Assembly (NCBI GenBank): GCA_029936815.1
Contig: JAPYRX010000004.1
Location: 20,423-84,422, forward strand
Reading direction: 5' to 3'
Origin: Dehalococcoidia bacterium
GTDB taxonomy: Bacteria; Chloroflexota; Dehalococcoidia; Lucifugimonadales; GCA-002694895
Length of the DNA stretch: 64,000 nucleotides
The notes below the pieces were generated by a model that had not been told where the DNA came from, searched no databases, and saw only the letters and a list, made by a program, of their open reading frames with translations. Positions 1,438 to 58,507 of the stretch are shown here, in pieces. Positions within the stretch are counted from its first letter, which is position 1. The number at the start of each line of letters is the position of its first letter. The translations under genes were made by a program, and so were the position numbers.

Positions 1438-1617
1438 TTATTTAGGAGGAAGTAAGTTGGGTATTCCGTCTTTTATAGGAAATTTCAGATTACACGTTTT
1501 GTTTTGACATATTAATTCACCATCTATAACATCATCTTTTTCTTCAAGATTTATTGTTAGCAACAAATCTGATTTGCAAATAGGACAGGCTAAAATGTCA
1601 TTTAATTCTTTTTTCAT
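1438..1617 (-). CDS. Trm112/UPF0434 (YcaR-like) small zinc-ribbon protein, 59 aa
   Basis: The ORF is below the track's length cutoff. It reads MKKELNDILACPICKSDLLLTINLEEKDDVIDGELICQNKTCNLKFPIKDGIPNLLPPK, with CPxC...CxxxxC cysteines and an FPIxDGIPxLL tail. Its ATG at 1617..1615 abuts the stop of the upstream gene, and its TAA stop at 1440..1438 lies 4 nt before the carboxyltransferase start. Confidence 0.7.
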   Translation of the reverse strand: MKKELNDILACPICKSDLLLTINLEEKDDVIDGELICQNKTCNLKFPIKDGIPNLLPPK

Positions 1618-50902: not shown

Positions 50903-51556
50903 ATGAATAATACAATTAAAGTGATTTTAACTAGTTTTGAACCATTTGGAAAATACAAATATAATCCTACAATTTCAGTAATGAATAACGTTCAATCATT
51001 TTTTGAAAACTCTGCAAATATCCAAATAACAACTAATATATTACAATGTAAATATTCAACTATTAAGAACGAAGTATATGATATATATATGGATAATCCT
51101 GACATTATTATTAGCTTAGGATTACGTGCTAATACTTCTTATTTAAATTTGGAATCCATTGCGCAAAATGAGTATAGCTCGATCACTCCTGACAATGATG
51201 GAATAACATTAAGCGGAAATAAGATAATAAATTCTAGTGAAAATTTAATCAGTACTTTAGATTTGGATAAATTACAAATATTGTCAGATAAATATGTTGA
51301 TTCTATTGTTTCAAAGAATGCAGGTAAATTTATGTGTAATGCAAATTTTTTTTGGAATCAATATAAACTTAACTCGGATAAAATAACTACTAAATATTTA
51401 TTTATTCATATCCCATTCACTGATAAATATATTGATTTAGAGCAAGAAATATCTAATAATAATTTACCTGTATTAAAAGAAGACAATATTGTACAGTCAA
51501 TAATTTCAATTATTAAAAATTTATCCAAAAGTGAGGAGAACAAACTTGAAATTTAA
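50903..51556 (+). CDS. pcp: Pyroglutamyl-peptidase I (C15)
   Basis: The N-terminus is VILTSFEPFG. The catalytic Cys context is AGKFMCN and the His context is LFIHIP. Confidence 0.8.
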   Translation: MNNTIKVILTSFEPFGKYKYNPTISVMNNVQSFFENSANIQITTNILQCKYSTIKNEVYDIYMDNPDIIISLGLRANTSYLNLESIAQNEYSSITPDNDGITLSGNKIINSSENLISTLDLDKLQILSDKYVDSIVSKNAGKFMCNANFFWNQYKLNSDKITTKYLFIHIPFTDKYIDLEQEISNNNLPVLKEDNIVQSIISIIKNLSKSEENKLEI

Positions 51557-53147
51557 TTCTAGAAGATCAAATGTATTATCTACACGTGGAACTGTAGCAA
51601 CTAGCCAACCTTTAGCAGCAGAAGCTGGAGCAAATATATTACGTAAAGGAGGTACAGCGGCCGATGCCGCCGTAGCCGCTGCAGCTGTTTTGAATGTTGT
51701 TGAACCAATGTCAACAGGGATAGGAGGAGATGTATTTGCATTATATTACCAGGCATCGGATAAAAAAATGTATGCTTTAAATTCAAGTGGACGAGCTCCA
51801 CAAAAAGCTGATCCTGAACAATTGATCAACATGGGATATGACAAAATTCCTCCTACATCTCCGTTTTCTGTATCCATACCAGGTGCAGTAATGGGTTGGG
51901 ATGAAATTGTAAACAAGTTTGGAAAATTGGATTTAAAAACAATAATTGAACCTGCATATGATTATGCTTCGAATGGCTTTCCTGTTAGTGAAGTAATTGC
52001 TGATGGGTGGAAATCTTCTACATCGAAAATTAAAGAAGACCCCAACTACCCTGAATTTCTAAATCCTGATGCTCCAAAATTCGGATCAATAAAAAAATTA
52101 CCCAATTTAGCAAATTCTTTGAAATTAATAATGGATAATGGCGTAGATGGTTTTTACAAGAGTGATATTGCAACTAAAATTTCAAGTCATATTCAAAAAC
52201 TCGGCGGTTGGATAGAAAAAAGTGATATCGAGAATCATAAGGCAGATTGGGTAGAACCTATAAATACGAATTATAGGGGACATACTGTGTGGCAATGCCC
52301 GCCAAACACCTGGGGATTAGTGGTACTGATGGCTTTAAATATATATGAAGGATTTTCAAAATCTGAAATTGGTGATCCAACAAAAGAATTACATTTGAAA
52401 ATCGAAACTATAAAAGCAGCATTTTCAGATGGATTATTTAATATTACGGATTTTGATGTTACTAAAAATGTTTTACCAAATTTATTATCCGATGAATATG
52501 CTAAAAATAAACGTGAACAAATCAACCATAATAAAGCTATAAGTTATGAACCAACAATCAGAGTTGATTCTAATAACACTGTATATATAACAACAGCAGA
52601 TAAATACGGAAATGCTTGTTCATTTATAAATAGTTTGTACATGGGATTTGGATCTGGAATTGTGGTTCCAAAAACCGGAATCGCTTTACAAAATAGAGGT
52701 GCCGGTTTTAGTTTAGATAAAAATCATCCGAATTACTTAGCTCCTAACAAACGTCCATTCCATACATTAATTCCTGGAATGGTAACAAAGAATGGTGAAT
52801 TAAAATATTCATATGGAGTTATGGGTGGAATGCAACAAGCGCAGGGACACTTTCAGGTTCTATCTAATCTCATAGATAAAAATCTCACACCACAAGAAGC
52901 TTTAAATGAACCTAGATTTAGTGTTGTACCATGGGATGATGATGAAAAAGATCAAAAAAAAGACTCAGTATTATTAGAAAGTATTTTTGATACTAAAGTT
53001 CTTTCACAAATTAAAAATTATGGACATAACATCATAATAAATGACCCATCACCAATGTTTGGAGGTGGTCAAGTTATTGAAATAAATGGTAAGATGATGA
53101 TAGCTGGATCTGAGCCTAGAAAAGATGGTCAGGCTGTAGGATTATAA
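51546..53147 (+). CDS. ggt: Gamma-glutamyltransferase-family Ntn hydrolase, no signal peptide (paralog 1)
   Basis: TVATSQPLAAEAGANILRKGGTAADAAVAAAAVLNVVEPMSTGIGGD, a Thr-rich autoprocessing region (NNTVYITTAD), and GVMGG are present. I prefer the TTG at 51546, 7 nt after GAGGAG. The track start is the GTG at 51531. Confidence 0.85.
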   Translation: MKFNSRRSNVLSTRGTVATSQPLAAEAGANILRKGGTAADAAVAAAAVLNVVEPMSTGIGGDVFALYYQASDKKMYALNSSGRAPQKADPEQLINMGYDKIPPTSPFSVSIPGAVMGWDEIVNKFGKLDLKTIIEPAYDYASNGFPVSEVIADGWKSSTSKIKEDPNYPEFLNPDAPKFGSIKKLPNLANSLKLIMDNGVDGFYKSDIATKISSHIQKLGGWIEKSDIENHKADWVEPINTNYRGHTVWQCPPNTWGLVVLMALNIYEGFSKSEIGDPTKELHLKIETIKAAFSDGLFNITDFDVTKNVLPNLLSDEYAKNKREQINHNKAISYEPTIRVDSNNTVYITTADKYGNACSFINSLYMGFGSGIVVPKTGIALQNRGAGFSLDKNHPNYLAPNKRPFHTLIPGMVTKNGELKYSYGVMGGMQQAQGHFQVLSNLIDKNLTPQEALNEPRFSVVPWDDDEKDQKKDSVLLESIFDTKVLSQIKNYGHNIIINDPSPMFGGGQVIEINGKMMIAGSEPRKDGQAVGL

Positions 53148-53172: not shown

Positions 53173-56100
53173 ATGCAAAATCAAATAAAAGAACAAATTG
53201 TAAATAATCTTAACTGGAGAAATATTGGCCCTCCAAGAGGTGGTAGAACTGTAGCCGTTGCTGGGCATCCGACAAATATTAATGAATATTATTTTGGAGC
53301 ATGTGCAGGTGGCGTTTGGAAAACTGAGGATACAGGATTGAGTTGGAAAAATGTATCAGATGGATTTTTGAATACATCTTCTATTGGAGCTATAGCAATA
53401 GCTGAATCGGATCCAAATGTTATTTATGTTGGAACAGGAGAAGCATGTATTCGTGGAAACGTATCTCCTGGAGATGGTGTATATAAATCAACTGACGCTG
53501 GTAGAACATGGAGCCATGTTGGATTAACTGAAACTAAACATATATCAAGAGTTAGAATTGATCCTACAGATCACAATATTGTTTATGTTGCAGCACTTGG
53601 ACATGCTTTCGGTCCAAATGAAGAACGTGGAATATATAAATCGATTGATGGTGGCGAAAACTGGGAACATGTTTTATTTGTTAGTAAAGGAGCTGGAGCT
53701 GCTGACTTATCAATGGATACTGGTAATCCAAGAATATTAATTGCAACAATTTGGGAAGCACAAAGAACTTTTTGGAATTTAGAAAGTGGTGGCCCTGATT
53801 CCGGTATTTATATAACATTTGACGGTGGTGAAAACTGGGAAAACATTACCAAAAATCCTGGGTTACCTGATGGATTAAAAGGTAGAATGGGAGTTTCTAT
53901 TTCACCTGCTAAAGAAGGAAGAATGTGGGCTACTTTAGAATCTGAAATAGACACCGGAGTTTATAGAACTGAAGATTACGGTAAAACTTGGAACTTAGTT
54001 TCTGATAACCAAGATTTACAAGGCAGACCTTGGTATTATCAACATATTTTTGCTGATCCCTCAGATGAAAATACTGTATGGATTATGAATTATAGTTGTT
54101 TTAAATCGACTGACGGTGGAAAAACTTTTGAATTAGTAAATACACCACACGGTGATAACCATGATATATGGATAGATCCTAGTGATAGTAATCGTTTAAT
54201 TCAAGGTAATGACGGTGGCGCAAACGTATCATTAAATGGTGGGAATACTTGGTCATCAATATATAATCAAAAAACAGCACAATTTTATCATGTGCATACA
54301 GACAATCAATTCCCATATAGAGTCTATGGTACACAACAAGATAACTCAGCCATAAGCGTCCCATACAGAACTGAAAAAGGAGCAATAACTTGGGCTGATT
54401 GTTATATTACGGGGACATCAGAAAGTGGATATATTGTAACTGATCCTAATGATCCTAATATTGTTTATTCTGGCGCTATCGGAAGTTCTCCAGGTGGTGG
54501 CGGAAATATGTTGAGATATGACCATTCCACGGGGCAAGTTAGGATAGTAACAGTATGGCCTGTTGCTAATACAGGGAAAGGAGCTGATTCAATGAAATAT
54601 AGATTTCAATGGACATATCCCATCCAATTTTCACCTCATGATTCTAAGACTTTGTATGTTGCTGGTAATGTTGTGTTCAAATCAACAAACGAAGGGCAAA
54701 CATGGGAAGAAATTAGCCCAGATTTAACCAGAAATGACAAAACAAAACAAACTGTTTCAGGAGGTAAAATTACCAAAGATACTTCTGCGGCAGAAACTTA
54801 TTGTACTATATATTCATTTTTAGAGTCACCTCACGTAAAGGGATTAATGTGGGCTGGTAGTGATGATGGATTAATTCATATATCTACAGATAATGCAGCA
54901 AATTGGTCAAATGTTACTCCTAAAGATTTTCCTGAATGGGCTAGAGTTCATATGATTGAACTTTCACCGCATGATAAATCAACAGCTTATATTGCTGCGA
55001 CCAAAAATATGTTAGATGATTACAGGCCAATTTTGTATAAAACTACCGATAATGGTAATTCGTGGACAAGAATTGATAAATCATTCCCAACTGATGAAAT
55101 TACAAGGGCAATTAGAGTAGATAAAAACGATCCGAATATCTTGTACGTTGGAACTGAAACAGGTTTGTATGTTTCATTTGATGATGGTTCTAATTGGACT
55201 AAAATCAATTCGAATTTACCAGTAGTACCGATTTACGACATTGATATTAAAGATAGTAATATGATTTTAGCCACGCATGGAAGAGCATTTTGGATTCTAG
55301 ATGATATTTCAGCCATATCACAATTAAACAATGATATACATGATAAAAATTTCATATTAGACCCTGCTCCAACTTTCAGAATTCTACCTCCTTTTGGCTT
55401 TAGATTATTTGGAACTGGTCCAGATAATGGTAAATCTTATATGGCATCATTGGGTTCTCCTGTTTTGATTGAAAAATCAAAAGATCCTTCTGGCGAAATT
55501 AAAACAGAATATTTAGATTCGGGTGAAAATCCTCCTATGGGAGTAACAATAAGTTTCTATCTTGATAATAAACCTGAAAGTGCTGAATTAATTATTAAAG
55601 ATACAGATGGTGAAATAATAAGAACATTTAATACTGAAGAAATTGAAGTTAAAGAAACAAATGTAGTCAAAGCTTCTCTCCCATCAAAATCTACTTCTGT
55701 ATTAAAGGTTAACAAAGGATATAATAAATTCTTGTGGGATATGTATAGTGAATCACCTTATAAGTTAGAAGGTGAGAAACTCACAGCAGGACTATCCGGG
55801 CCAATGGTTGTACCTGGTAATTATAATGTAGAATTACAAATTACTAATAAATCTAAAACTACAACACTTAATACCTCTGTAAAACTTTTGAAAGATCCAA
55901 GAGTTTCAGCTACAGAGAATGATTTTGATGCTCAATATTCATTATTACAAAAAGTTAATGATAAGATTTCAGAATTACATAAGTCTGTAGAAACAATACG
56001 GAAAAACCAAACTGAAATTTCTGACTGGATATCTAGATCTGATAATTCAAGTAATTATGAAGAAATCAATGAAATTGGTACAAATTTAATTACTAAATTA

Positions 56101-56376
56101 AATGAAATTGAGAAACTACTTGTATTCACAGATTATAAAGGCGCAAGAGATAGATTAAATAATCCAGTTGTATTAAATGTCAAACTTGCCAGTCTTATTC
56201 CCGTAATTGACAGCGCAGACTTTAAACCTACAGATCAATCTTATGGTGTATATACTGAAGTTAGCGAAGAAATTGATCAACAACTTGATAAACTAAAATC
56301 TATGCAGGAATCTGACTTAGTAGACTTTCAAGATTTAGTTTCTAAAAATAATATTCCAGGACTAAAAAGCTTGTAA
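53173..56376 (+). CDS. Large BNR/Asp-box repeat protein with sortilin/VPS10-like double propeller (often annotated 'glycosyl hydrolase, BNR repeat')
   Basis: 1067 aa with at least 10 Asp-box motifs (S/T-x-D-x-G-x-T/N-W): STDAGRTW, SIDGGENW, TFDGGENW, TEDYGKTW, STDGGKTF, STNEGQTW, TTDNGNSW, SFDDGSNW and others. No N-terminal signal peptide is seen. Confidence 0.8.
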   Translation: MQNQIKEQIVNNLNWRNIGPPRGGRTVAVAGHPTNINEYYFGACAGGVWKTEDTGLSWKNVSDGFLNTSSIGAIAIAESDPNVIYVGTGEACIRGNVSPGDGVYKSTDAGRTWSHVGLTETKHISRVRIDPTDHNIVYVAALGHAFGPNEERGIYKSIDGGENWEHVLFVSKGAGAADLSMDTGNPRILIATIWEAQRTFWNLESGGPDSGIYITFDGGENWENITKNPGLPDGLKGRMGVSISPAKEGRMWATLESEIDTGVYRTEDYGKTWNLVSDNQDLQGRPWYYQHIFADPSDENTVWIMNYSCFKSTDGGKTFELVNTPHGDNHDIWIDPSDSNRLIQGNDGGANVSLNGGNTWSSIYNQKTAQFYHVHTDNQFPYRVYGTQQDNSAISVPYRTEKGAITWADCYITGTSESGYIVTDPNDPNIVYSGAIGSSPGGGGNMLRYDHSTGQVRIVTVWPVANTGKGADSMKYRFQWTYPIQFSPHDSKTLYVAGNVVFKSTNEGQTWEEISPDLTRNDKTKQTVSGGKITKDTSAAETYCTIYSFLESPHVKGLMWAGSDDGLIHISTDNAANWSNVTPKDFPEWARVHMIELSPHDKSTAYIAATKNMLDDYRPILYKTTDNGNSWTRIDKSFPTDEITRAIRVDKNDPNILYVGTETGLYVSFDDGSNWTKINSNLPVVPIYDIDIKDSNMILATHGRAFWILDDISAISQLNNDIHDKNFILDPAPTFRILPPFGFRLFGTGPDNGKSYMASLGSPVLIEKSKDPSGEIKTEYLDSGENPPMGVTISFYLDNKPESAELIIKDTDGEIIRTFNTEEIEVKETNVVKASLPSKSTSVLKVNKGYNKFLWDMYSESPYKLEGEKLTAGLSGPMVVPGNYNVELQITNKSKTTTLNTSVKLLKDPRVSATENDFDAQYSLLQKVNDKISELHKSVETIRKNQTEISDWISRSDNSSNYEEINEIGTNLITKLNEIEKLLVFTDYKGARDRLNNPVVLNVKLASLIPVIDSADFKPTDQSYGVYTEVSEEIDQQLDKLKSMQESDLVDFQDLVSKNNIPGLKSL

Positions 56377-56404
56377 TTAAAATTAATTATTAATTAATTT
56401 TAAT
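56376..56404. terminator. 14-bp perfect AT-only inverted repeat between convergent genes (possible bidirectional terminator)
   Basis: attaaaattaatta (56376..89), then t, then taattaattttaat (56391..404). It overlaps the stop codons of the BNR gene (56374..76) and the Trx-like gene (56383..85). Confidence 0.3.
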
Positions 56405-56871
56405 AATTCATTAAGTTGTGGAACTCTGTTCCAACGGTTTATGATTGTACCCTTATGATTTAATAAGAACATACTAGGTACAGATTTATAATTAAATTTT
56501 TCTATAAAGTCAGTTCCTTCATTGGTGCTGATTTCATATTGGATGAAGTTAATAGGATAATTATTAACCGCTATACTTAACTGCTTCACGAGCGGTTTAT
56601 ATGCCATGCAAGCCACTCAGTAATTACTATATAGATATACAATTGTATTATCATATTTATTTAATTCAACTGAAATATAATCATATGATGAATCAGTAAC
56701 TTTGTTTAATTTTGTGTATGATACAAAAGCGATATTCACTATTAATAACGATATTGAGATGAATATAAGAAATTTACTTCTATATAGAAATGAAAATAAA
56801 AATAATGAGATTAAAATCAGTAAAACACAAATTATTAAGCTATTGTAATTTATAATCTGAAATAATTTCAT
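56383..56871 (-). CDS. Membrane-anchored thioredoxin-fold protein with in-frame TGA at the first CxxC position (candidate selenoprotein, U-V-A-C); alternatively a nonsense pseudogene
   Basis: Track ORFs 56617..56916 and 56383..56616 are in the same frame and contiguous, separated only by the TGA at 56619..56617. The joined product reads ...DNTIVYLYSNY-[TGA]-VACMAYKPLVKQL...INFIQYEI...KSVPSMFLL..KGTIINRW. This runs beta1, redox motif, alpha1 and the cis-Pro loop of a Trx fold. The likely start is the ATG at 56871..56869, 1 nt after the GGT stop. Two N-terminal TM helices are predicted. Confidence 0.55.
56566..56597 (-). promoter_or_regulatory. SECIS-like hairpin candidate 19 nt downstream of the in-frame UGA
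   Basis: On the mRNA, AACCGCU (56597..91) pairs perfectly with AGCGGUU (56572..66) around an 18-nt loop, CGUGAAGCAGUUAAGUAU. The loop can add G.U, U-A and G.U pairs. The stem is built from G/C-ending codons (CCG, CTC, GCG) that look rare elsewhere in this window. Confidence 0.35.
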
Positions 56872-56872
56872 A

Positions 56873-58507
56873 TTAAACTTTATATACTGATCCGCCACCT
56901 CTAGGATCACTACCACCGTCTAAAGTGTTATTTTCAGGATTATATGAAACAACTTGCGCTCTAGCCATCATAGGATTATAAGGATAATCTTCTTGTACTA
57001 CATCAAAACCCAAATCAATTAGTTTATCTTTAAAATCAGTTCTGATTCTAGATTCCAAATAAACTTTTCCACTTTCTGTATGTATTCTTGGAGCAGATAC
57101 TGCCTCAGTTGGGCTCATGTCATAGTTAATCATATTTAATAACGATTGAAATACTGCACTCACTATTACAGCGCCTCCTGGTGCACCACATATAATGACC
57201 GGGTTACCTTCTTTTAAAACAATAGTGGGTACCATATTTGATCCTCTGGCTTTTCCTGGAGCTATAGAATTCAAATTTCCTGGTCTAGGATCGGCTAAAT
57301 TCATGCCATTATTATAAATAAAACCTAACCCAGGTGTAATCACACCTGACGCCCAACCCAAAGTATGTGTGATTCCAATCCAGTTACCTTCAGTGTCTAC
57401 TGAATTCACATGTGTTGTATGGCCAGATGATGAATTACCAATTTCAGGTATGATATTATTTCTAATGTCATTAATTTTATTATTAATACGATCCTCATTT
57501 AACACAATTTCATCTACTGGAATATCAACAAATTTAGGATCAGCATTATAATCTAATCTGTCTTGGTGTGATATTGACATAACATTTGCAATAATCTTTA
57601 AATATTCATAAGAAGAATGATTTTTGATTTCGGTTTGAAAAGGTTCAATCAATTTAAACATTTGTAAAACAGACATACCAGTATTTGGTGGAGGAGGAGA
57701 AGAAATTTGATAATTCAAATAATTTGTTATTAATGGATCTACAAAATCAGGTTTAGAATTTTTCAAATCATCTTGTGTTACAAATCCACCATTTTTTTGA
57801 ATATCATTGATAATAATTTTAGACAAATCACCTTCGTAGAATTCTTTCGCGCCGTTTTTTGCAATTATTTCTAGAGTATCTGCGTAATCTTTCATATTAA
57901 TTATTTCACCAGTATCATAAACTGATCCATCAGATTTTAGGTATTTTTCTTTACAACCATCAGATGCAGAAATTCTTTGATAAGTATTCGGCTGAAGTGG
58001 ATTAATATTAGACCTTAATGCGTATCCAGTTTTGAAATATTCACCCAAACGGGAATCTACAGTTAATCCTTTTTTGGCATGTTCTATACTTGGTTGAATT
58101 AATTCAGCCCAAGGCATACTACAATATCTTTTATGAATTTCATTAAATGCAGACAAAGTATTTGGAGTCATTATTGATTTATAACCAATCTCACTTCTGT
58201 AATCATCAAATTGAAATAGATTTGATACATCACTTCTTGTCACTTTATCATTAGCCCACATTTCTTCTGTACATTTACTACCAGCGGTACCAGCAAAATT
58301 AATTGCAATAGTTTTATTTAATTTTTTATCATAAATTTGAGCTATGCCCATTCCTCCTAATCCAGTCATAAAAGGATCTACAATCCATTGCATAAATGCT
58401 ACTGCCAACGCTGCATCAAACGCATTTCCACCCTCTTCGAATATTCTTGCCCCAGCTTCTCCGGCAATTGTTTGAGGGCAGGTGATAATACCTTTGTTGA
58501 CAGACAT
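56873..58507 (-). CDS. ggt: Gamma-glutamyltransferase-family Ntn hydrolase, no signal peptide (paralog 2)
   Basis: TIAGEAGARIFEEGGNAFDAALAVAFMQ...TGLGGMG is present, with the autoprocessing nucleophile region SSGHTTHVNSVD, plus PGGAVI and a C-terminal DPRGGGS. Confidence 0.85.
   Translation of the reverse strand: MSVNKGIITCPQTIAGEAGARIFEEGGNAFDAALAVAFMQWIVDPFMTGLGGMGIAQIYDKKLNKTIAINFAGTAGSKCTEEMWANDKVTRSDVSNLFQFDDYRSEIGYKSIMTPNTLSAFNEIHKRYCSMPWAELIQPSIEHAKKGLTVDSRLGEYFKTGYALRSNINPLQPNTYQRISASDGCKEKYLKSDGSVYDTGEIINMKDYADTLEIIAKNGAKEFYEGDLSKIIINDIQKNGGFVTQDDLKNSKPDFVDPLITNYLNYQISSPPPPNTGMSVLQMFKLIEPFQTEIKNHSSYEYLKIIANVMSISHQDRLDYNADPKFVDIPVDEIVLNEDRINNKINDIRNNIIPEIGNSSSGHTTHVNSVDTEGNWIGITHTLGWASGVITPGLGFIYNNGMNLADPRPGNLNSIAPGKARGSNMVPTIVLKEGNPVIICGAPGGAVIVSAVFQSLLNMINYDMSPTEAVSAPRIHTESGKVYLESRIRTDFKDKLIDLGFDVVQEDYPYNPMMARAQVVSYNPENNTLDGGSDPRGGGSVYKV

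Follow-up and report, generated by a model that had tools for sequence, protein, structure and literature searches.

RESULTS

A thioredoxin-like gene carries an in-frame UGA followed by a hairpin

We analysed a 64,000-nt stretch of a Dehalococcoidia bacterium genome (assembly GCA_029936815.1, contig JAPYRX010000004.1, positions 20,423 to 84,422 of the forward strand), hereafter the window, and in particular a predicted selenoprotein gene at 56383..56871 on the minus strand, which is broken by a single in-frame UGA and carries a small hairpin 3′ of the UGA. The frame runs from an ATG at 56871 to a TAA at 56385..56383 on the minus strand and comprises 163 codons including the stop, giving a product of 162 amino acids (aa) with selenocysteine (Sec) predicted at residue 85. 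The UGA (codon 85; 56617..56619, minus strand) opens a U-V-A-C motif (56619..56608, minus strand), the equivalent of a CxxC motif with predicted Sec as residue 1, and the 18 nt on its 3′ side read GTG GCT TGC ATG GCA TAT. The hairpin, AACCGCU-CGUGA-AGCAGUU (56579..56597, minus strand), resembles a bacterial selenocysteine insertion sequence (SECIS), starts 19 nt after the UGA within the open reading frame (ORF), and consists of a 5′ arm (56597..56591), a loop CGUGA (56590..56586), and a 3′ arm AGCAGUU (56585..56579). We refer to it as the mini-hairpin.

The product is predicted to be a membrane-anchored protein with a thioredoxin fold. With Cys in place of the UGA, the 162-residue product matches Pfam PF00085 (Thioredoxin) with an E-value of 6.7e-6 and 26.5 bits, against a cutoff of 23.5. 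An AlphaFold2 model of an 89%-identical ortholog (P0001; predicted local distance difference test score, pLDDT, 85) shows a thioredoxin fold, with transmembrane (TM) helices at residues 9-30 and 33-54, N-terminal to the thioredoxin domain, and with residue 85 directly preceding helix α1 (residues 86-102). Comparison of this model with the PDB by Foldseek returned thioredoxins as the top matches (template modeling score, TMt, 0.68-0.76). Residues P132 (the cis-Pro), S82, and C88 are invariant across the family alignment, and Pfam, AlphaFold2, Foldseek, and P132 agree on a thioredoxin fold with a cis-Pro loop. In a scan of NCBIfam, only generic thioredoxin models were matched, all below their cutoffs, and no selenoprotein-specific NCBIfam family matched the product of 56383..56871.

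The UGA is conserved at the position of a catalytic cysteine

TGA is present at the identical codon in 26 of 26 orthologous loci (16 distinct sequences, 48-90% identity), and is also kept in six remoter homologs (eight loci, L028-L035; 28-35% identity). Residues flanking the TGA codon are invariant on both sides, and continuous orthologs cover both ORF halves. The related loci come from metagenome-assembled genomes (MAGs) with Chloroflexota/Dehalococcoidia in their titles. A preliminary description of the locus had favoured recoding over a dead gene, a view borne out by the conservation of the UGA, which supports the assignment of the UGA as a recoding site.

In the family, whose members are of ~160 aa, Cys occupies the UGA position in 11 of 24 representatives, and also in a homolog from a high-GC genome (L027), where the motif reads SNY-C-VAC. 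HMMER aligned Y-[U]-V-A-C with W-A-E-P-C of the thioredoxin-like domain of a monothiol glutaredoxin (PDB 3d6i). This alignment puts the UGA where the WCGPC motif of thioredoxins has its first Cys, a position occupied by Ala in PDB 3d6i. The UGA thus matches the first, catalytic Cys of CxxC, and homologs with Cys there exist; as judged from the alignment, the Cys forms at this site are the classical signature of a Sec/Cys pair.

Public proteins of the selenoprotein family show W at the UGA position (representatives P0001-P0004, P0007-P0009, P0012, P0015-P0017, P0022, and P0037). The DNA of these representatives has TGA in 10 of the 10 read (all but P0017, P0022, and P0037), and, because the DNA shows TGA in every locus read, the W is an artefact of gene calling with genetic code 4 on AT-rich contigs. 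Other public entries are fragments: P0031 (75 aa) stops at ...YSNF, with the TGA as the next codon, and two entries of 67-68 aa, P0005 and P0006, match solely the C-terminal part past the TGA.

We considered readings in which the UGA does not encode Sec, namely an alternative code (Trp, code 4; Gly, code 25), a pseudogene or two separate genes, and a SelB-dependent variant in which UGA is read as Cys. The W of public gene callers would fit the first, a GTG next to the TGA that could start a 77-aa ORF would fit the second, and the third has a precedent, UGA-to-Cys recoding via tRNASec-like tRNAs having been described in bacteria; the window also lacks visible Sec machinery (see Discussion). The alternative code is rejected: the stops of the 52 long window ORFs, intact under table 11, are TAA in 42, TGA in 8, and TAG in 2, and Trp is encoded by TGG 210 times in the window ORFs. 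Moreover, Trp or Gly at the catalytic Cys position would be inactive. In the homologs, the TGA is mostly followed by GCN, ATH, or CTA, and in few by GTN. With ATG, GTG, and TTG as the start set and ATH not counted as a start, most homologs thus have no in-frame start at this point, and a downstream ORF translated on its own is correspondingly less likely. The pseudogene and two-gene readings are likewise rejected, because homologs as distant as 28% identity retain both halves, and neither half alone makes a complete thioredoxin fold. A role of the UGA other than Sec insertion is very improbable, with the UGA-to-Cys variant still conceivable on sequence alone. The gene is the one credible in-frame-TGA gene in the 64 kb, and no other gene with an in-frame TGA and open flanks, and no other TGA with a perfect hairpin, was found in the window or the related loci.

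The mini-hairpin is conserved through compensatory changes

The TGA regions were aligned without gaps for the 16 orthologs and then for 20 distinct TGA-containing homologs (28-90% protein identity), and in every aligned sequence the hairpin has one fixed register. In the 20 sequences, 95.7% of cells are paired, and six of the seven pairs show compensatory double changes, one of them occurring as U-A, C-G, G-C, and A-U. The covariation score is 0.576, compared with 0.188 for shuffled partners (0/500), and sliding the partner by one column lowers pairing to 51-58%. Unprompted, RNAalifold returned the mini-hairpin as the sole consensus structure of the 20 sequences and also recovered it on the 16 orthologs. 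A second small hairpin, just past the UGA (columns 10-13/20-23), was drawn by RNAalifold on the 16 orthologs; it was dropped on the 20-sequence set and is explained by Ala..Ala codons. A covariance model of the mini-hairpin, run over the window, found the known site only, with next matches at E > 1 and no second copy.

The arms differ between clades. Specifically, the hairpin is AACCUUU-CGUGA-AAAGGUU in clade B, and AACCUCAA-GUU-UUGAGGUU (L009) and AACCUCAG-GUU-CUGAAGUU (L010) in clade C. The distant Sec forms keep the register, with AAGCCUGU-AGUUG-AUAGGCUU in L028, CCUAC-CGUGA-GUAGG in L031, and AAAGUUCGU-AGUUG-ACGAGCUUU in L035; in a further distant Sec form, L034, the hairpin is AAAAUUCAU-AGUUG-AUGAAUUU, the CC/GG core having become UU/AA. 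The window mini-hairpin contains a C.A mismatch at pair 4. The same mismatch, at alignment columns 32/44 (window 56594 and 56582), occurs in two clades, in the window and L001 and in L010 and L015, and all other pairs stay Watson-Crick or G.U. It could be a tolerated, possibly protonated pair, or an independent weakening in each clade.

Compensation often involves amino-acid replacement. In particular, Leu, Phe, or Gln stands opposite Lys or Leu, and Pro..Arg is replaced by Phe..Glu with two base pairs kept. The compensations being often non-synonymous, the RNA structure shapes the peptide.

Rare G/C-ending codons build the stem

The codons from 18 nt past the TGA are AAA CCG CTC GTG AAG CAG TTA AGT ATA GCG GTT, six of the eleven ending in G or C; the preliminary description had given these codons, the six endings, and the coordinates of its stem, all of which we confirmed on the minus strand. 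The GC content at third codon positions (GC3) of the 52 long window ORFs is 0.18, and the patch codons account for small shares of the codons for their amino acids (CCG 5%, CTC 2%, GTG 8%, AAG 9%, CAG 10%, and GCG 7%). Only 0.43% of all 11-codon windows contain at least six G/C-ending codons, and a run of five such codons was seen at 2 of the 19,101 positions that the other 52 ORFs offer. The patch exceeds what chance would give. Its run of five, CCG CTC GTG AAG CAG (codons 93-97; 56581..56595, minus strand), is the source of the hairpin G-C pairs: G33-C43, C34-G42, and C31-G45 fall on third or first positions of these codons. Elsewhere in the family, Arg at a hairpin codon is encoded by AGG in 14 of 14 Sec forms; AGG makes up 8% of Arg codons in window genes.

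The preliminary description had proposed comparison with synonymous shuffles as a check. With 5000 synonymous recodings drawn from window codon usage, none gave an in-register hairpin as stable as that of the window, and eight other orthologs tested gave p = 0.0002-0.03; for the window the test is fair, other clades having served to define the register. The stem that the preliminary description had proposed (see below) is matched by 1 of 5000 recodings, a post hoc value, the stem having been picked from the sequence itself. Folding of the 86-nt segment around the element, suggested in the same place, gave no excess stability over dinucleotide shuffles (z = -0.8; 41/200), and its minimum free energy (MFE) structure contained neither that stem nor the mini-hairpin. 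The MFE of the 63-nt segment against synonymous recodings gave p = 0.06. The MFE of a whole segment is a poor test.

These data bear on a reading in which a conserved peptide (K-P-x-V-x-R-L, in helix α1) and base composition together give rise to the hairpin as a by-product, with read-through independent of it. The peptide residues K, P, V, and L are indeed conserved in Sec and Cys forms both, the loop G-U is supplied by the first two bases of the conserved Val codon, A-U pairs come easily at a genomic GC content of 30%, and one low-GC Cys form (L036) has weak pairs in six of seven in-register positions. However, the pairs covary on both sides, by synonymous and non-synonymous changes; synonymous recodings of the same peptides hardly ever fold as the hairpin; the rare codons (CCG, CTC, AAG, and CAG, with AGG elsewhere) stand precisely at paired sites; and one-column slides lower the paired share to 51-58%. 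The Cys forms supply a further control. One low-GC Cys homolog, L038, encodes the same K-P-L-V peptide as AAA CCA TTA GTT, with no hairpin and no G/C-ending codons, and the low-GC Cys homolog L037, with the same peptide pattern, likewise has no hairpin and no G/C-ending codons; the concern that Cys homologs might share the G/C-ending codons, raised in the preliminary description, thus falls away for these two. A by-product origin is extremely improbable. In L036 (501-995), the pairs are A-U and G.U pairs past a TGT codon, and they may be what remains of a SECIS after a change from Sec to Cys such as PMC1794560 describes. The Cys homolog L027 is GC-rich and uninformative on the hairpin.

The distal stem is private to the window sequence

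The preliminary description had paired the same 5′ arm, AACCGCU (56597..56591), with a more distal 3′ arm, AGCGGUU (56566..56572, minus strand; -7.7 kcal/mol), a window-specific alternative partner. This distal stem was accurately described as perfectly complementary across an 18-nt loop, and its inner extension by G.U, U-A, and G.U pairs is drawn by RNAfold of the UGA plus 60 nt. Its apical loop, AAGCAGUUAAG, has 11 nt, begins with AA, and has no leading G. The view that the stem is under selection holds in that rare G/C-ending codons build a conserved stem, but the conserved partner is AGCAGUU (56585..56579) rather than AGCGGUU; likewise, the element behaves like a bacterial SECIS, as had been suggested, but its 3′ arm, and hence its loop, had been misassigned. 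The proposed search of orthologs for compensatory changes bears this out, with compensatory changes keeping the mini-hairpin and the distal stem not conserved.

Three mutually exclusive stems of the window share CCGCU: the mini-hairpin, the distal stem, and a stem, GAGUGG (56618..56613) with CCGCUC (56595..56590) (56590..56618, minus strand), that takes in the GA of the UGA. For this UGA-sequestering stem the energy is -7.2 kcal/mol in the window, and a U-to-C change strengthens it to -9.1 in L001. In naked RNA it forms with a probability of 0.25 (window) or 0.99 (L001), and it is absent from other clades. The distal arm is in turn overlapped by an A+U-rich 8-bp hairpin, GGUUAAUA-AUUAUCC-UAUUAACU (56547..56569, minus strand), which competes with the distal stem, is encoded by AAT AAT TAT CCT ATT AAC, and is present in the window MFE structure. 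A counterpart is predicted in L001 only and in no other clade, and the hairpin is probably compositional.

Could the distal stem, with its inner pairs, be the functional SECIS of the source organism, replacing or supplementing a weakened ancestral mini-hairpin? It is the most stable local option (-7.7 versus -3.1 kcal/mol), rarely matched by recoding, dominates the ensemble of the UGA plus 60 nt (P = 0.71), and has P 0.2-0.9 in many contexts representing a ribosome at the UGA; the C.A mismatch of the window mini-hairpin makes a compensating structure conceivable. Comparison with orthologs points the other way. In particular, the 89%-identical ortholog L001, whose weak mini-hairpin is identical, has AUCGAUU at the distal arm, which breaks two of the seven pairs, and it cannot form the stem: the energy is -0.9 kcal/mol with all seven pairs imposed and +5.7 with the two mismatches open. 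Over the 16 orthologs, 59.8% of distal-stem cells are paired, no better than with shuffled partners; over the 20 sequences, 58.6% are paired, modestly above shuffles (0/500 for paired cells, 1/500 for covariation). Its two core C-G pairs fail to form in 14-15 of the 20 sequences, other clades have unrelated sequence at the distal-arm position, and no other clade has the stem. The 11-nt apical loop with its AA start fails the loop criteria for a bacterial SECIS (see below), and with at least 78 nt of downstream context the distal arm is captured by the A+U-rich hairpin. As far as the sequences compared can tell, the distal stem is private to the window sequence and may be due to chance, and we consider its function as the SECIS improbable.

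A ribosome with the UGA in its A site was mimicked by removing the first 13 nt and folding 78 nt of context. Under these conditions, the mini-hairpin is the MFE element in 16 of 16 orthologs (P 0.55-1.0), with P = 0.71 in the window. The predicted occupancy of the distal arm ranges from ~0 to 1 with folding context. Thermodynamics alone cannot choose the stem for the window; the comparative evidence, as read from the aligned homologs, decides for the mini-hairpin.

The mini-hairpin fits the bacterial SECIS consensus except in energy

The bacterial SECIS (bSECIS) consensus of Zhang & Gladyshev 2005, as summarized in PMC13188914 (Fig. 2A), specifies an apical loop of 3-9 nt, an upper stem of 4-16 bp, a G in loop position 1 or 2, usually followed by G or U, a distance of 16-37 nt from the UGA to the loop, and an MFE <= -7.5 kcal/mol. 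The mini-hairpin lies inside the ORF, 3′ of the in-frame UGA, with a loop of 5 nt (3 nt in clade C) and a stem of 7-8 bp. Its loop is CGUGA, AGUUG, or GUU, and in the window a G at loop position 2 is followed by U. The distance from the UGA to the loop is 26 nt (columns 10-35) in 20 of 20 sequences, with no indels. The hairpin is conserved with compensatory changes in Sec forms and absent from the Cys forms L037 and L038, L036 being ambiguous. The distal stem agrees with the consensus in spacing and energy, and departs from it in loop size (11 nt) and loop G.

The gene adjoins a gamma-glutamyltransferase gene

Upstream of the selenoprotein gene lies a gene of the gamma-glutamyltransferase (GGT) family (56873..58507, minus strand). 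Its stop is 1 nt before the selenoprotein ATG, and the two genes therefore probably form one operon. The order GGT, thioredoxin-like gene, and convergent gene for a BNR-repeat protein is kept in all clades, and the linkage to GGT points to membrane-level redox chemistry, thiol- or glutathione-related, as a possible function. A scan for promoters and terminators around the selenoprotein gene gave nothing above shuffled expectation.

The window contains two GGT-family genes within 7 kb (51531..53147, plus strand, and 56873..58507, minus strand), which flank a gene for a 1067-aa BNR/sortilin-like repeat protein (53173..56376). The selenoprotein diverges much faster than its neighbours, with between-clade identities of 48-53%, compared with 69-77% for GGT and 69-80% for the BNR-repeat protein. 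Other genes of the window are bacterial, including MetH, AcsA, PpsA, a BaeS-like kinase, and a membrane pyrophosphatase. A 59-aa ORF at 1438..1617 (minus strand), with two Cys pairs (CPIC...CQNKTC), resembles Trm112 or a zinc ribbon and abuts the next gene.

DISCUSSION

The gene at 56383..56871 most probably encodes a membrane-anchored UxxC selenoprotein, an oxidoreductase of thioredoxin fold, with Sec insertion directed by a bacterial-type SECIS, the 19-nt hairpin at 56597..56579. Conservation of the UGA, Sec/Cys pairing, covariation of the hairpin, and codon bias are direct observations. The binding of SelB and the actual insertion of Sec would follow by analogy with characterized systems.

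The SelB/SECIS mechanism is known from the E. coli and Moorella systems. On that model, a ribosome with the UGA in its A site would unwind the first ~13 nt, including any UGA-sequestering stem, and the mini-hairpin would then sit just outside the mRNA entry channel. There, SelB.GTP.Sec-tRNASec would bind the apical loop through its C-terminal winged-helix domains and deliver Sec, which would act as the nucleophile of a U-x-x-C redox centre. Because the element lies within the reading frame, in the coding sequence of helix α1, its stem would be upheld by rare synonymous codons (CCG, CTC, AAG, and CAG; AGG elsewhere) and by paired amino-acid replacements.

Several observations weigh against a selenoprotein with this SECIS. 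First, neither the window nor the related loci yielded a selA, selB, selD, or tRNA-Sec gene: no sel gene is among the ten large window ORFs that were scanned, and ARAGORN, run on the window and 19 loci, found no tRNASec, the sole tRNA being a tRNA-Glu in L027, from the high-GC MAG of a Cys homolog. Second, the hairpin of the window is weak (-3.1 kcal/mol by itself, -4.4 if a short lower stem is added); the energies computed for nine orthologs range from -1.7 to -8.3, and only L009 passes the -7.5 kcal/mol cutoff, a search heuristic, in a family whose genomes have 23-39% GC. Third, in the naked ensemble of the UGA plus 60 nt, the mini-hairpin has P ~0.001, and in the ribosome mimic its balance with the distal stem in the window is roughly even, from ~0.2 to 0.8 by the boundaries chosen. 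Fourth, a scan of the window at Rfam gathering thresholds matched no family. Finally, the loop G37 and U38, invariant in 20 of 20 sequences, are fixed by the conserved Val codon, so that their invariance alone is no proof of selection at the RNA level, and the independent compensatory events are modest in number, the 20 sequences coming from few clades.

As regards the Sec machinery, selenoproteins and tRNASec have been reported from Chloroflexi (PMC1794560, PMC5389517), and Dehalococcoidia MAGs are among the largest known bacterial selenoproteomes (PMC13326102). Judging from these relatives only, the source organism would be competent for Sec.

A bolder proposal is that the SECIS of this family would form a distinct minimal class of AT-rich marine Dehalococcoidia (7-bp, A-U-rich, -2 to -8 kcal/mol, 19 nt past the UGA), and that in the window lineage a 5′ arm shared with two mutually exclusive stems, the UGA-sequestering stem and the distal stem, would make Sec insertion dependent on ribosome-driven refolding and tunable by conformer. 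We regard this as unlikely; if it were true, the standard bSECIS energy filter would systematically miss selenoprotein genes in such genomes. Independently of any such class, energy-filtered SECIS searches are likely to miss genes with weak hairpins in AT-rich genomes.

For the predicted selenoprotein with its mini-hairpin, the analysis provides comparative confirmation of both gene and SECIS in a marine, low-GC lineage of uncultured Chloroflexota, for which W-mistranslated and truncated public entries hide the active-site Sec. The alignment also illustrates how an RNA element within an ORF shapes the protein, with Pro..Arg in some members and Phe..Glu in others.

Comparison with known systems places the element and the protein. 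Like the bSECIS consensus, with E. coli fdhF and fdnG as its prototype, the mini-hairpin is an in-ORF hairpin 3′ of the UGA with a small loop containing G-U, and it shares the conserved upper stem-loop, the optional lower stem that can include the UGA, and the constraint on the peptide. It is far weaker than the -7.5 kcal/mol cutoff of that model, with an A-U-rich stem and only 2-4 G-C pairs. The minimal fdhF element has an 11-nt spacer and a bulged U17; here 19 nt separate the UGA from the base of the hairpin, and there is no bulged U.

At the protein level, the closest membrane-anchored systems are extracytoplasmic thiol-disulfide oxidoreductases of the ResA/CcmG(DsbE)/TlpA/StoA type, which share an N-terminal anchor, a thioredoxin fold, and a CxxC-type motif, and weak NCBIfam matches to StoA, DsbE, and ResA were obtained (E 0.01-0.3). 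Unlike them, the present protein has two TM helices rather than one and no TlpA-type insertions, and its domain is nearest to plain thioredoxins by sequence and structure. Marine metagenomes have yielded UxxC selenoproteins of thioredoxin-like type, with a bacterial SECIS, since 2005-2008 (PMC1088965 Tables 1 and 3; PMC2398784). The present family agrees with those of the Sargasso Sea and Global Ocean Sampling sets in fold, in Sec in place of the N-terminal Cys of CxxC, in the existence of Cys homologs, in marine origin, and in a bacterial-type SECIS; it differs in its two N-terminal TM helices, its motif YSN[YF]-U-x-x-C, its linkage to GGT, and its low-GC marine Chloroflexota hosts. Thus, the UxxC thioredoxin-like selenoprotein with a bacterial SECIS is already well known, and the two-TM subfamily described here is one that is misannotated in public sets.

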